Below the pieces are notes generated by a model. That model made no database searches. It was not told the DNA's origin and was given only the letters and a program-made list of their open reading frames with translations. This document shows, one piece after another, positions 2,610 through 56,828 of a DNA stretch of 64,000 nt (positions are counted from its first letter, which is position 1; every line of letters starts with the position of its first letter). A program made the position numbers and the translations under genes. The DNA comes from Bacillota bacterium (GTDB lineage Bacteria > Bacillota > Bacilli > Bacillales > Bacillaceae_B): assembly GCA_051750565.1 (NCBI GenBank), contig JBNJJV010000007.1:98901-162900 (forward strand), read 5' to 3'.

Positions 2610-2900
2610 TTACTTGGCAACAAAGGCCAATATAAAACTTATTAAGAAACTGACAACCACTGCTAATAAAACTCGCTTCTTTTTAACAGAAGCATCTTCA
2701 ACGGGCCCTTCCATTTTTAAAAGAACAAATGAGAGTCCGGCCGATGCCGATATCCCCGTTGCTAAAAATACACTCCAATCCTTTGCGAGTCCCGCACTCA
2801 TCAAAGGATTGGAAAGAAGTAAAAGTCCAATAGATACGGAGATTAGAAGAACAAACACACTCCTAAAACCGATTCGCTTTGGGACAACCGTTTCTGTCAT
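2610..2900 (-). CDS. Small 3-TM membrane protein, unknown function
   Basis: MTETVVPKRIGFRSVFVLLISVSIGLLLLSNPLMSAGLAKDW... ATG 2900 lies 8 nt after GGAG. It is co-oriented in the PTS/GH4 operon. Confidence 0.55.
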   Translation of the reverse strand: MTETVVPKRIGFRSVFVLLISVSIGLLLLSNPLMSAGLAKDWSVFLATGISASAGLSFVLLKMEGPVEDASVKKKRVLLAVVVSFLISFILAFVAK

Positions 2901-2924
2901 TTGAATCACTCCTAATGCTAATGA

Positions 2925-3262
2925 AGAAGTGGGAATCCTAGGACCCCCACTTCTGCTTTTTGATATGAATGCTTATGTGGAGAGGGATAAGCCCCTCCAC
3001 CTTTCTTTTTGTCCAGCTACGGGGCTTAGAGGCTCGAGGTCATAAGCTAATCCGCTAAGAAGGTTAAAGAGCAACCTTCATGCCGGCTTAGCTTATGCTT
3101 GTCGCCTCTGGGCAAAGCCCTTCCGCTTTTCTATTTGTCCAGCTCCGGCGGCTAGCCCCTCGAGGTCATAAGTCCAGCCCACCAAAAAGGCAAAGAACGC
3201 CTTTCCGGTGGACTTGCCTTATGCTTGTCGGGGCTGATCGAGCCGCCTCCGCCTTTCTATTA
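2925..3262. repeat. Structured intergenic repeat array: two leader hairpins plus two 126-bp tandem long-hairpin units
   Basis: Unit 1 is 3011-3136 and unit 2 is 3137-3262. Both start GTCCAGCT and each is preceded by CCNCYTTTCTWTT. Each unit folds into a roughly 100-nt multi-helix hairpin (CATAAG...CTTATG core). It fills the whole gap between the EIIC stop and the next ORF. Confidence 0.85.
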
Positions 3263-4540
3263 TGCCGCTTGTTGATCGCTTTCTTCCATCTTCATCATCT
3301 TCTTGTCGTACATCTTGAAGAATGGGAAATAGATAGCGAAAGAGATTGCGATATTGATAAGAACCATGACAATGGCTCTCCAGTCACCACCCGTTGCCAG
3401 GTACGCTCCGATTGGTGCGGGCAGTGTCCAAGGGGGCATGATATAGGTTGGTGATACCAGCCCTATAGTTGTTGCTACATAAGCCAGAGTACCAGTGATC
3501 AGCGGGATTGTTACAAATGGAATGATCAAAATCGGATTCAATACAATAGGAGCACCGAAGATGATAGGCTCATTGATATTGAAGATACCCGGTACAATAC
3601 TTGTTCTTCCTAACGCTTTTAAGTATTTTGAGCGGGAGAAGAAGACCATTGCCAGAACTAATCCAAGAGTTGCTCCTGATCCACCTATCCAGATGAACCA
3701 TTGGTAGAATGTTTCGGGTGCGATGTGTGGAATTGCTTCTCCATTTGCAACCGCATCTGCATTGTTTACAAGGAACACTTCCCATAGTGGACGGGCAACC
3801 GTTCCTACTACAGACACCCCATGGATACCGAATGACCAGAAGAACGTAATTAAGAATACCGGAATCAATACGCCGAAAATACTGTCACCAGCGGTAACTA
3901 ATGGAGCAACCGCTACGCCAATTAGATGATGTAAATCTACTCCGGCTACTACGGTTACAGCAGAAACCAATAGAATAACAATCGCTACAGGAATAAGTGC
4001 TTCAAAGCTTCGTGATACAGATGCCGGTACTTGCTCCGGCATTTTGATCGTAATGTTTTTCGTTTTACAAAACCTCAAAATTTCAACTGCCAGAATCGAG
4101 ACGACCATGGCGACGAATAATCCATGACCACCGAGGTTGGTCATTGGCAGGACCCATCCTTCTCCATCCATTACTTTTGGTGTAATCGTTAATAGAAGTG
4201 CAGCTACTGAAATTTGTGCACCGGATAATGGATCCAGGTTATAGCTTTTCGAGAGGTTGTATCCTATCCCGAAGGCTATATAGAGTGACATGATAAACAT
4301 GGTCAGTCGGTAAGGAATCAGGATTTCAACGATGTTGTCAGCGGCCCACTGTTTGATGTCTCCGAATATTCCGCCATCAGGAAGCGGTGGAAAAGCTAAG
4401 ATCAGGAAAAATGAACCAACGATAATAAATGGCAGTGCTGAAATAACCCCATCCCGGATTGCTTGCAAGTGCCTTTGTTCAGAGAGCCGGGCCATTGGAC
4501 CTGACAAGTTGTTCTCTAGAAAATTTACAAACTTTTGCAT
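3260..4540 (-). CDS. PTS lactose/cellobiose-family EIIC permease
   Basis: MQKFVNFLENNLSGPMARLSEQRHLQAIRDGVISALPFIIVGSFFLILAFPPLP... is a typical Cel/Lic EIIC N-terminus; 426 aa, polytopic. Confidence 0.9.
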   Translation of the reverse strand: MQKFVNFLENNLSGPMARLSEQRHLQAIRDGVISALPFIIVGSFFLILAFPPLPDGGIFGDIKQWAADNIVEILIPYRLTMFIMSLYIAFGIGYNLSKSYNLDPLSGAQISVAALLLTITPKVMDGEGWVLPMTNLGGHGLFVAMVVSILAVEILRFCKTKNITIKMPEQVPASVSRSFEALIPVAIVILLVSAVTVVAGVDLHHLIGVAVAPLVTAGDSIFGVLIPVFLITFFWSFGIHGVSVVGTVARPLWEVFLVNNADAVANGEAIPHIAPETFYQWFIWIGGSGATLGLVLAMVFFSRSKYLKALGRTSIVPGIFNINEPIIFGAPIVLNPILIIPFVTIPLITGTLAYVATTIGLVSPTYIMPPWTLPAPIGAYLATGGDWRAIVMVLINIAISFAIYFPFFKMYDKKMMKMEESDQQAA

Positions 4541-4567: not shown

Positions 4568-4873
4568 TTAGTTGGTTAATTCTTTTACTGTTTTCAGTAA
4601 AGTAGGACCGCCAAGTGGAGTGTACGCTTGTGGAGGAATCGGACCACAAGGAACATTCGCTTCATCAGCGGCTTTCTTCACTTGATCAAAGCGGTGTCTG
4701 ATCTGCGGTGCTACCATACAAACATCCCATCCCTTGGAGATCTCCTCCGATACTTCACCGGTTCCAATTGCATGTACTTCCATCTCAATCCCGGCTTTGT
4801 CCCCTTCTTTTTTCAGTGCATTCACGACAATTGCGCTGGACATTCCACCGGAACATACGAATAATACTCTCAT
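4568..4873 (-). CDS. PTS lactose/cellobiose-family EIIB
   Basis: MRVLFVCSGGMSSAIVVNALKKEG... carries the active-site Cys loop; 101 aa. Confidence 0.9.
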   Translation of the reverse strand: MRVLFVCSGGMSSAIVVNALKKEGDKAGIEMEVHAIGTGEVSEEISKGWDVCMVAPQIRHRFDQVKKAADEANVPCGPIPPQAYTPLGGPTLLKTVKELTN

Positions 4874-4875
4874 CT

Positions 4876-5742
4876 TTACTCTTCCTCCTCTTTCATTCTT
4901 TGAACTACTTCATGTGTATGAATAATTTGCTCGTAAACGCCATGTCCTTTTTTCATGCATAAAGCGACGAATAAAGCGTCAATCACGACGAGTTGAGCAA
5001 TTCTTGCTGTCATGGTTCCGATTCTGATATTGTGTTCTTCCTCGGAAATCGTTAAGACGATATCAGCGAGCTTCCTTGCGGGGGATTTCCCATGCTGTGT
5101 CAATAGAAGGATTGTGGCCCCTTTTTCTTGAGCGACGTTCATGAGCTTCAGTATTTCCTTTGTCTGACCTGATGTGGAGACGACGAAGAGAACGTCTCTT
5201 TCGGTTAAGTTTGCGGCCATCATCATTTGCACATGGATATCACTCGCTTGAAATGCCAGATAGTTCAGTCGTAATAGCTTTTGCGTAAAGTCTTCCGCTA
5301 CTACAGCTGAACCGCCTACTCCATACAGGTATACCCGTCCAGCTTTATGGAACGCGTTCACAGCCCGATCCAGTTCATTTATGGAAAAAAGCTTTTCCGT
5401 GTTCTTGATCGCTTGATAGGTGTTCACCAGTACTTTGTTGAATACGGTTTCAAGATTGTCTTCAAAGTGCAGAAGTGTATTGATGTCATGACTCTTTGTT
5501 TCTTCAATATTCGAGCTTTTGGCCAATTCGATCTTCAAACCGCTGAAACTATTGATTCCGATTCGTTTGCAGAACCGGATGATGGCTGCTTCACTGCTGC
5601 CACATGATTGTGAGAGTTGCTTTGTCGTCATTTCCATTACTTTCTCAGGAAACTCCAACACATATTGAGCAACCGCAATTTCAGACGGGGTGTAGTTCTC
5701 CATCTGACTTTTGATGTGTTTTAATACTTGAAATTCCGTCAT
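4876..5742 (-). CDS. RpiR/MurR-family transcriptional regulator (HTH_6 + SIS)
   Basis: MTEFQVLKHIKSQMENYTPSEIAVAQYVLEFPEKVMEMTTKQLSQSCGSSEAAIIRFCKRIG... plus a SIS domain (VYLYGVGGSAVVA). ATG 5742 lies 5 nt after GGAGG. Confidence 0.85.
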   Translation of the reverse strand: MTEFQVLKHIKSQMENYTPSEIAVAQYVLEFPEKVMEMTTKQLSQSCGSSEAAIIRFCKRIGINSFSGLKIELAKSSNIEETKSHDINTLLHFEDNLETVFNKVLVNTYQAIKNTEKLFSINELDRAVNAFHKAGRVYLYGVGGSAVVAEDFTQKLLRLNYLAFQASDIHVQMMMAANLTERDVLFVVSTSGQTKEILKLMNVAQEKGATILLLTQHGKSPARKLADIVLTISEEEHNIRIGTMTARIAQLVVIDALFVALCMKKGHGVYEQIIHTHEVVQRMKEEEE

Positions 5743-5768
5743 AGTCACCTCCAAAAAAATGATTGTCT

Positions 5769-56516: not shown

Positions 56517-56828
56517 TTGACTGCGCTTTCTTCCTATGCTAGATTGTGTTTAATAATTAAATTCCACGACGAGAAAAAGTACGAGAAGGAACATGTTCTA
56601 AAGAGAGTCGGTGTATGCTGGGAGCCGGTGGACAGATCTTTACCGAAAATCATCTCCGAGATGCAAAGCTGAATTGGAGTAGGCTTTGACGGAATTCCAC
56701 CGTTATCAAGGGACATGTATGATTGTACATAGATAAGGTGCCGGAATGTTTCTTTATAGATCAACTTCCGGAATATGGGTGGTAACGCGAGTCCTAACTC
56801 GTCCCTGATCAGGGGCGGGTTTTTTTAT
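56517..56828 (+). promoter_or_regulatory. T-box leader (promoter TTGACT-17-TAGATT, stem I, T-box, terminator); probable Ile specifier ATC
   Basis: AGAGAG/GCTGGGAG stem-I elements are present. The specifier loop reads AGTA...GAAAATCA, with ATC at 56649-51 followed by A. The T-box is AATATGGGTGGTAACGCG (56772-89). The terminator is at 56797-56822, followed by T7. Confidence 0.8.

Follow-up and report, generated by a model that had tools for sequence, protein, structure and literature searches.

A dispersed 126-nt hairpin repeat of the Bacillaceae lies between the EIIC and GH4 genes of a Rossellomorea PTS operon

REPINs are hairpins of ~100 nt that carry conserved motifs and commonly show compensatory changes (PMC3116915). 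ERIC elements are imperfect palindromes of ~127 bp that form a long hairpin, occur at transcribed intergenic 3′ ends in either orientation and can alter the stability of the upstream mRNA; for both ERIC and REP, roles in exonuclease protection or as processing sites have been reported (PMC3184786). Streptococcus pneumoniae harbors BOX, which forms transcribed arrays of tandem modules, and SPRITE, a terminator-like repeat of ~105 nt that is biased to the 3′ ends of genes (PMC3184786). In the Bacillus cereus group, the ~155-bp bcr1 repeat is dispersed, patchily distributed between close strains and transcribed, and compensatory changes keep its structure (PMC3184786). A paper on tandem repeats in Bacillus covers repeats of 52 nt and 20–21 nt only (PMC8161180). 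Here, we show that a PTS operon of a Rossellomorea contains a non-coding hairpin repeat of ~126 nt, present there as two full copies and one decayed copy and dispersed through the chromosomes of Rossellomorea and many other Bacillaceae. Searches of the literature with sequence strings and keywords yielded no description of this repeat, and the family appears to be unnamed.

The DNA that we analyzed, hereafter the window, is a 64-kb stretch of assembly GCA_051750565.1 (contig JBNJJV010000007.1, positions 98,901–162,900 of the forward strand). The repeat array follows the EIIC gene of the operon and is itself followed by a short predicted membrane ORF and then by a GH4 glycosidase gene (Table 1). 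The window EIIC shares 97% identity with its counterpart in Bacillus sp. NTK074B, 96% with the one in Bacillus sp. AFS015802 and 93% with the one in R. aquimaris, and the small membrane ORF is kept in all orthologous operons. The EIIC stop codon (3260–3262, minus strand) lies within the first unit, its TAA being the first three bases of unit 3137–3262.

Table 1 Features of the PTS operon and its repeat array, in window coordinates. R1 denotes the covariance model of the repeat family; both full units are in its seed alignment, and their R1 scores are therefore partly circular.
Feature	Positions	Strand	Basis
RpiR-type regulator	4876–5754	minus	domain/gene-context check
EIIB	4568–4873	minus	domain/gene-context check
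PTS EIIC gene	3260–4540	minus	Pfam PTS_EIIC, E 3.7e-61
Repeat unit nearest EIIC (unit 2 of the initial annotation)	3137–3262	minus	R1 131.5 bits, E 1.9e-35, model 1–126
Second repeat unit (unit 1 of the initial annotation)	3011–3136	minus	R1 125.2 bits, E 1.2e-33, full length
Degenerate third-unit fragment	2968–3010	minus	aligns to the ends of both units; holds hairpin 2977–3000
Operon-specific hairpin, outside the repeat family	2918–2967 (stem 2925–2960)	minus	conserved in orthologous operons
97-aa predicted membrane ORF	2613–2903	minus	translation; no Pfam family; downstream of array
GH4 glycosidase	1256–2623	minus	GH4 confirmed; comes after the 97-aa ORF

The array contains two 126-bp hairpin units, as the initial annotation had proposed. 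These align without gaps and are identical in 84 of 126 columns (67%); because they are no more alike than this, Tandem Repeats Finder reported nothing at the array. The motifs CTCGAGGTCATAAG and CTTATGCTTGTCG, which had been described as common to the two units, each occur exactly twice within the 64-kb window, both times in the units, and neither a motif search nor R1 found any further full unit in the window. Folding produced a single long hairpin for each unit on both strands. The plus-strand energies of units 3011–3136 and 3137–3262 were −51.4 and −53.8 kcal/mol, and the minus-strand energies were −50.8 (z = −4.2) and −66.5 kcal/mol (z = −6.3), respectively, with z-scores against shuffles of −3.9 to −6.3 over both strands. 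We also recovered the paired differences in three helices on which the initial annotation had based its case: the outer helix reads AGAGGC (3028)/GCCTCT (3104) in unit 3011–3136 and AGCCCC/GGGGCT in unit 3137–3262, and the middle and apical helices likewise differ in a paired way. A 119-aa ORF that spans the repeat (3095–3454), previously taken for an artefact, has no Pfam match and runs antisense to EIIC, consistent with that judgment.

The earlier description of the gap behind EIIC as entirely repeat did not hold, since its far part comprises a degenerate fragment and a different, conserved operon hairpin. Two further hairpins had been noted there; both exist, but they do not form a single class. 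The hairpin at 2977–3000 lies in a fragment that is reduced to the stretch starting with CTTATG, taking in the outer arms and finishing at the A/T-rich end. This fragment gives a weak R1 match (2969–3010, 6.7 bits, E = 0.1) and contains a site scored by a terminator-like consensus scan (2982–2997). It aligns to the ends of the units and is a decayed third unit; the arrays of relatives likewise finish in a partial unit. The hairpin at 2925–2960 is unrelated to the repeat, and its 12-pair stem is the same in 8 of 8 orthologous operons compared, including the repeat-less operon of R. marisflavi; across these orthologues, the stem shows a single compensatory change and, on the operon strand, two G-U pairs. 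Its plus-strand reading runs on into GCTTTTTG, which makes the hairpin terminator-like in that direction, and the array sits between this hairpin and the EIIC stop codon. The unit hairpins are followed by a T-run on the plus strand only (CCGCTTTTCTATTT); on the minus strand, GGAC AAAUAGAAAAG comes next without a U-tract, and the consensus scan scored no minus-strand terminator-like site in 2918–3262. We found no promoter-like site inside the units and thus rejected the possibility that they are independent small-RNA genes.

The family was scanned in one genome per species with an exact pattern of two motifs 35–60 nt apart. Among the matches listed, the repeat occupies more than 115 loci at the least, in at least 14 named Bacillaceae genera; those listed include Rossellomorea, Cytobacillus, Neobacillus, Metabacillus, Peribacillus, Siminovitchia, Gottfriedia, Jeotgalibacillus, Sutcliffiella, Pseudoneobacillus, Lysinibacillus, Sporosarcina and Halobacillus, together with unplaced ‘Bacillus’ strains. 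Units adjoin unrelated genes in both orientations and occur singly or head-to-tail at a spacing of 125–126 nt (for example, at locus L016), and a census with nhmmer counted 137 arrays that hold 1 to ~11 units. We aligned 81 units with MAFFT (alignment A2: one per locus plus the two window units) and built the covariance model R1 on this alignment. R1 yielded 202 matches in 100 loci, ~165 of them on the modelled strand and the rest weak opposite-strand matches to the same units. Both window units match the model over its full length, including the two invariant motifs (CGACAAGCATAAG ... CTTATGACCTCGAG), whose invariance is by construction of the exact two-motif search in a sample biased to one subfamily. 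Independent support for membership comes from their 84–88% identity to units at other loci. Thus, a covariance-model search of relatives, which the initial annotation had set as a test that could refute its reading, turned up many further copies as well as strong covariation. The sole window match to Rfam 15 above its gathering score is a T-box at 56557, and the best matches within 2850–3320 reached 12–18 bits against cut-offs of 56–90, also at permissive thresholds. A phage genome collection contained no match to the repeat and a plasmid collection contained one, on a 690-kb Cytobacillus replicon; these two collections give no sign that the repeat rides on mobile replicons.

RNAalifold predicted 30 pairs in four helices across the 81 aligned units, and 22 of the 30 pairs show double compensatory changes; the MAFFT alignment was not fitted to a structure, but the structure was derived from that same alignment and the aligned sequences are related to one another. 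Paired cells amounted to 92.4%, compared with 71.7% in shuffles (0 of 500 shuffles reached the observed value) and 28–46% with slid partners, and double-change cells numbered 508, compared with 170 in shuffles. Wobble intermediates, changed on a single side, were rare relative to double changes, and many changes were GC-to-CG swaps. The two invariant motifs flank an asymmetric internal loop, and a purine-rich 3 × 3 loop is also present. The family keeps the hairpin while its helices vary freely through paired changes, and the unit hairpin is under structural constraint.

This constraint bears out one part of what the initial annotation had drawn from the paired differences, namely selection on structure. 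The other part, compensatory divergence of the two copies from one another, was not supported. Compared across the family, the two window units share 73% identity, whereas each is 84–88% identical to units elsewhere (at other loci and in other genomes), the best matches of unit 3011–3136 are units at other loci (84–86% identical), and the mutual similarity of the pair ranks 137th and 165th of 206. The AGAGGC/GCCTCT and AGCCCC/GGGGCT outer helices are two variants that recur across the family. As each window unit is closer to outside units than to its neighbor, the paired differences represent family-wide variation on a conserved fold. We also considered whether the two outer-helix types alternate as a rule; they do so in the arrays at L055 and L016 but not in those at L042 and L203, and units two apart are only a little more alike than adjacent ones (0.83 vs 0.77).

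We refer to the strand reading AGAAAAGCGGAGG...GGAGCTGGAC, which in the window is the minus or operon strand, as the sense strand. Of 151 units, 139 fold better as this strand than as its complement, with a mean advantage of 6.4 kcal/mol that arises mostly from a few near-fixed G-U positions. Since the asymmetry stems mostly from conserved positions, it does not settle whether the folded form is RNA or DNA. Outside one near-fixed G-U pair, G-U and A-C combinations are about equally frequent among the variable pairs (45 vs 44 by hand count), and their ratio is ~2:1 in the inner helices. Neither wobble nor folding asymmetry decides between RNA and single-stranded DNA. Stop-anchored copies, copies beyond terminators and other copies agree in fold energy and strand asymmetry, indicating that the structure is a property of the element and is maintained without selection on particular mRNAs.

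Copy number at the locus varies among close relatives. We compared the spacer between EIIC and the small ORF in Rossellomorea species whose EIIC is 90–97% identical to that of the window. The spacer holds no unit in R. marisflavi (L122) and a related MAG (L121), a 42-nt fragment in Rossellomorea sp. SC111 (L120), one unit in R. aquimaris (L117), a partial, one full and another partial unit in Bacillus sp. NTK074B (L151), two units in Bacillus sp. AFS015802 (L116), and two units plus a fragment in R. arthrocnemi (L150); R. pakistanensis (L118) and Rossellomorea sp. BNER (L119) carry an unrelated hairpin-rich insert. Where repeat sequence follows EIIC in L116, L117, L120, L150 and L151, the junction of stop codon and first unit is the same as in the window, abutting or overlapping. 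Searching nine other, more distant PTS loci with R1 revealed no unit. A second site, the yerC–pcrB spacer, contains 0, 1, 2, 3 or 4 units among genomes with 92–100% identical PcrB, and the genome without units is 99% identical to one with two. Presence/absence and copy number are therefore polymorphic at orthologous sites in both spacers. Given such differences between close relatives, the array is an unstable insertion that is dispensable to the PTS operon. Neither filled/empty comparison exposed a clean insertion junction, and no target-site duplication or direct-repeat flank was evident in 74 junction pairs. Transposition is thus a putative cause of the copy-number changes, and amplification and loss by recombination or slippage would also account for them.

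Two placement rules emerged across the family. According to crude ORF and codon-usage calls made here rather than deposited annotation, the commonest arrangement among the 137 arrays, seen in 58, is a position between co-directional genes whose direction the T-tail strand (GTCCAGC...CCGCTTTTCT) shares. Another 29 also have co-directional neighbors but are in the sense orientation, like the window array; convergent genes flank 18 and divergent genes 17. The first rule concerns stop codons. In 28 of the 52 arrays with a co-directional gene on the AAAAGCGG side, the stop codon of that gene is positioned −5 to +3 nt from the element start, whereas at the opposite end of the element a gene end is equally near in only 2 of 80. 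The same tendency was seen independently of gene calling: an open frame of at least 80 codons ends 1–10 nt before AAAAGCGG in 24 of 101 arrays, with TAA as the stop codon in 18, TGA in 3 and TAG in 3. A terminator-like site follows in 20 of 31 stop-anchored arrays, which places these in the 3′ UTR. The window array shows the same anchoring, but in an intercistronic spacer. Stop-codon anchoring may merely reflect the filling of a short gap between stop codon and terminator, yet the empty PTS spacer offers 35 nt and the array nonetheless starts at the stop codon. Such tight placement could also reflect a host-level role in mRNA 3′ ends.

The second rule concerns the other end of the element. Of the 80 arrays in the opposite orientation, 65 come after a terminator-like site that belongs to the upstream gene. 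At the GTCCAGC end, 37 of 92 arrays have a hairpin plus T-run, or the tail of a partial unit, no more than 16 nt upstream, against 1 of 99 for the other end and 10 of 347 for random points. The window array, when read on the plus strand, lies beyond the operon hairpin and GCTTTTTG. The T-tail strand is the G-rich strand of the locus in 96 of 137 arrays (p = 3 × 10⁻⁶) and, where the flanking genes are convergent or divergent, in 26 of 35; this orientation bias would fit a coupling to replication, with 8-kb GC skew confounded with gene orientation.

Taken together, we consider it likely that the array is made of a dispersed and polymorphic hairpin repeat of the REPIN/ERIC/BOX kind, probably self-propagating, that is co-transcribed with the PTS operon at this site. 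The hairpin and its invariant asymmetric loop would serve the propagation or maintenance of the repeat itself, and the hairpin is probably recognized as a folded single-stranded nucleic acid by a trans-acting factor. We infer mobility, as opposed to recombinational gain and loss. New units would preferentially insert beside a hairpin plus T-run, be it a terminator or the T-rich end of a unit already in place, and the opposite end would often be set directly on a stop codon. Because every unit has a hairpin plus T-run at its own end on its plus-type strand, such a site preference would yield exact head-to-tail arrays, and the arrays may thus have arisen by self-targeting. No mobilizing enzyme was recognized. 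All-against-all clustering of 845 ORFs neighboring 115 loci identified no protein family that recurs beside arrays, the only cluster being one of ABC-ATPase paralogues, and among the sampled loci no RAYT (Y1 HUH transposase) gene lies beside an array. To our knowledge, no RAYT-like system exists in Firmicutes. Three inverted unit pairs ~1 kb apart flank ordinary genes, which encode an HtpX-like protease, a radical-SAM protein and small proteins.

For the operon in the window, transcription is expected to read through the units from EIIC into the 97-aa ORF and GH4, as no U-tract follows the hairpins in this orientation and no terminator-like site lies on the minus strand. The operon mRNA would then carry two additional stable hairpins (−50.8 and −66.5 kcal/mol) from the EIIC stop codon onward. 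The effect on the operon is most likely none, or a modest change in processing or in the protection of EIIB–EIIC from 3′-exonucleases, and since congeners do without the units, any such effect would be non-essential.

Two bolder interpretations would go further: either the repeat is a self-targeting, structure-guided mobile element of a type so far undescribed in Firmicutes, or its stop-anchored copies constitute a widespread domesticated 3′-UTR module. We regard it as unlikely that one of these applies. Under the former, copying of the 126-nt hairpin would take place at the replication fork, in single-stranded DNA form, into hairpin-plus-T-run sites; these could be terminators or its own tail, the latter a target from which arrays build themselves. 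Its other end would be positioned on stop codons, and the invariant asymmetric loop would be recognized by an enzyme of the host or of the element.

A genome-wide role as a host-domesticated 3′-UTR or intercistronic RNA module that tunes the stability of the upstream cistron has a small chance of being correct. A hairpin right after the stop codon would block 3′-to-5′ exonucleases or recruit RNase III or an RNA-binding protein, for which the conserved asymmetric internal loop and the purine-rich 3 × 3 loop are possible protein sites. The proportion of co-directional cases with a stop codon within a few nucleotides of the element start, the terminator-like sites that place most such arrays inside the transcript and the better folding of the strand transcribed there all argue in this direction, and ERIC and REP provide precedents (PMC3184786). 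However, only about a quarter of arrays are so placed, the commonest arrangement being the opposite orientation beyond a terminator, where the structure is kept equally well. Free variation of copy number among close relatives and the rarity of wobble intermediates relative to double changes, GC-to-CG swaps included, also speak against such a role.

That the units are Rho-independent-like terminators or insulators, the plus-strand hairpin acting together with CCGCTTTTCTATTT much as in SPRITE (PMC3184786), is improbable. In the window, they would stop antisense transcription entering EIIC. The T-run after the hairpin on the plus-type strand only, the excess of the T-tail orientation between co-directional genes (58 vs 29) and 10 arrays that no other terminator-like site separates from the preceding gene are in keeping with termination. 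Nevertheless, the strong stem stops 5 nt short of the T-run, with only a 3-bp closing helix after the 3 × 3 loop, so that, unlike in an intrinsic terminator, the U-tract does not directly adjoin a GC-rich stem, and full units went unscored in the consensus scan. Most arrays in the T-tail orientation are already beyond a terminator-like site, and several precede a ribosome-binding site by 5–25 nt, a position from which a strong terminator would shut off the gene.

A DNA-level architectural function, as a cruciform or as an array bound by a nucleoid or topoisomerase protein, is very improbable. A function of this kind has been proposed for BIMEs. The palindrome present on both strands, the constant 126-nt spacing within arrays, the correlation of orientation with GC skew and the GC-to-CG swaps without wobble intermediates would all suit such a function, whereas conserved asymmetric loops and strand folding asymmetry are unexpected of a symmetric cruciform, and copies are dispensable at two loci. 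Finally, the view of the initial annotation, in which the array is an operon-specific cis-regulatory RNA that processes, stabilizes or attenuates the EIIC–GH4 mRNA, draws on the position of the units on the transcribed strand between two cistrons, on an operon strand that folds at least as well as the other and on strong covariation, but it is largely refuted by distribution and has hardly any chance of being right: the unit lies beside unrelated genes in both orientations across the family, R. marisflavi and the related MAG have the same operon without units while others have a fragment or one unit, the nine more distant PTS loci lack it, and the window units are nearer to units elsewhere than to each other.

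These findings have consequences beyond the operon. The repeat gives rise to spurious ORFs, such as the 119-aa one here, and defeats tandem-repeat finders, and a covariance model of it would clean the annotation of many Bacillaceae genomes. Covariation between adjacent copies may stem from a fold-conserving repeat family rather than from a locus-specific riboregulator. The family supplies hundreds of natural variants of one hairpin, and its two unusual placement rules could reveal how hairpin repeats spread in Firmicutes and whether they act on mRNA 3′ ends.

Among described systems, the repeat resembles REPINs in being an abundant extragenic hairpin of ~100 nt that occurs in clusters and tandem arrangements, and REPINs, too, are thought to act as folded single-stranded DNA or mRNA. 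It differs in lacking the GTAG/CGTC-tagged REP core of 20–40 nt (its ends are AGAAAAGCGG ... GGAGCTGGAC), in forming one continuous 126-nt hairpin rather than two inverted REPs, in its strictly direct head-to-tail arrays and in its hosts, which are Bacillaceae and not Proteobacteria. ERIC is an imperfect palindrome of almost equal length that likewise forms a long hairpin; its sequence and hosts are unrelated, it belongs to the MITE class and lacks long tandem arrays, and the Bacillaceae unit has no detected target-site duplication and has ends tied to stop codons or to a hairpin plus T-run. As regards MITEs in general, the arms of the unit are inverted repeats by virtue of its hairpin nature, and the 74 junction pairs showed no direct-repeat flanks. 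BOX and SPRITE share with it a Firmicutes origin and a predicted RNA structure but no sequence similarity; BOX consists of three modules (A, B and C) with a 45-nt boxB instead of one repeated 126-nt unit, and termination by the Bacillaceae unit is putative. The nearest taxonomic precedent is bcr1, which is flanked by 5-bp direct repeats and confined to the B. cereus group, whereas the present unit is a single hairpin rather than two stem-loops, forms arrays, has no direct-repeat flanks and occurs in other genera.

Two further comparisons were made and discarded. CRISPR loci combine short repeats with unique spacers and cas genes, and type III antitoxins are short-repeat arrays upstream of a toxin gene; the units described here abut without spacers, and their neighbors, PTS genes in the window, differ by locus. 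An integron attC is one structured site per gene cassette, placed after the stop codon of that cassette. The repeat is like attC only in being a structured site right after a stop codon, and its units are in tandem with no ORF between them and are dispersed over the chromosome. The repeat is thus an ordinary kind of object, a dispersed hairpin repeat, and belongs to none of the families with which we compared it.

Hairpin-type insertions appear to have a hot spot in the spacer between the PTS EIIC gene and the small ORF that separates it from the GH4 gene. In two relatives with an orthologous operon, this spacer holds inserts that are unrelated to the 126-nt unit and contain many long-range inverted repeats (see table). 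The small ORF itself, for which no Pfam family was found, was kept in all orthologous operons that we looked at; here, length-based gene calling was misled by a plus-strand shadow ORF of 105 aa (2587-2904). Elsewhere in the window, a T-box leader was identified.

Features of the EIIC-to-small-ORF spacer, the small ORF and the T-box leader
Feature	Location	Strand	Remarks
Insert unrelated to the 126-nt unit	L118 4779-4930		R. pakistanensis, EIIC-to-small-ORF spacer
Insert unrelated to the 126-nt unit	L119 4779-4980		Rossellomorea sp. BNER, EIIC-to-small-ORF spacer
Predicted membrane protein, 97 aa	window 2613-2903	-	between EIIC and GH4
T-box leader	window 56557-56809	+	124.3 bits; gathering score 93 (Rfam)

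Among loci from other Bacillaceae genomes, some arrays (L055 and L016) alternate between two outer-helix types in an ABAB pattern, giving a higher-order period of 252 nt, and others (L042, L203 and L090) are made of identical 126-nt units, which implies recent amplification. The unit also occurs enclosed by a second, different repeat module, at L001 (3936-4189) and likewise at L020, L034, L074, L081, L083 and L106. The module arms at L001 (...GGAGCGGAAGG..CGACTCCTGCGGG and CCCGCGGAAAGCGAGC..CTGGAGCGGAAATCAACT) are inverted, 37 nt long and 70% complementary, with an additional outer inverted pair at 3581-3617 and 4207-4243; these genomes therefore contain nested composite hairpin repeats.

Seven loci (L062, L047, L067, L032, L070, L021 and L024) carry units in the orientation opposite to that in the window, and there the T-rich end of the element precedes the next gene's ribosome-binding site by 5-25 nt (for example, ccgcttttCTAGTTAAGGAGGA...TTG). 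Such a placement would be odd if the unit acted as a strong terminator.

ORFs of 50-120 aa that cross the repeat on either strand (L009 215-409, L096 1925-2086 and window 3095-3454) are spurious; their peptides include ...RLEVISQ... and ...LACDLEP..., and many genomes probably have them annotated as hypothetical proteins. Within ~30 nt of several units, in their flanks (L049, L078, L033, L072 and L037), lies a 9-mer resembling a DnaA box (TTATCCACA / TGTGGATAA), which may be a component of another repeated module.
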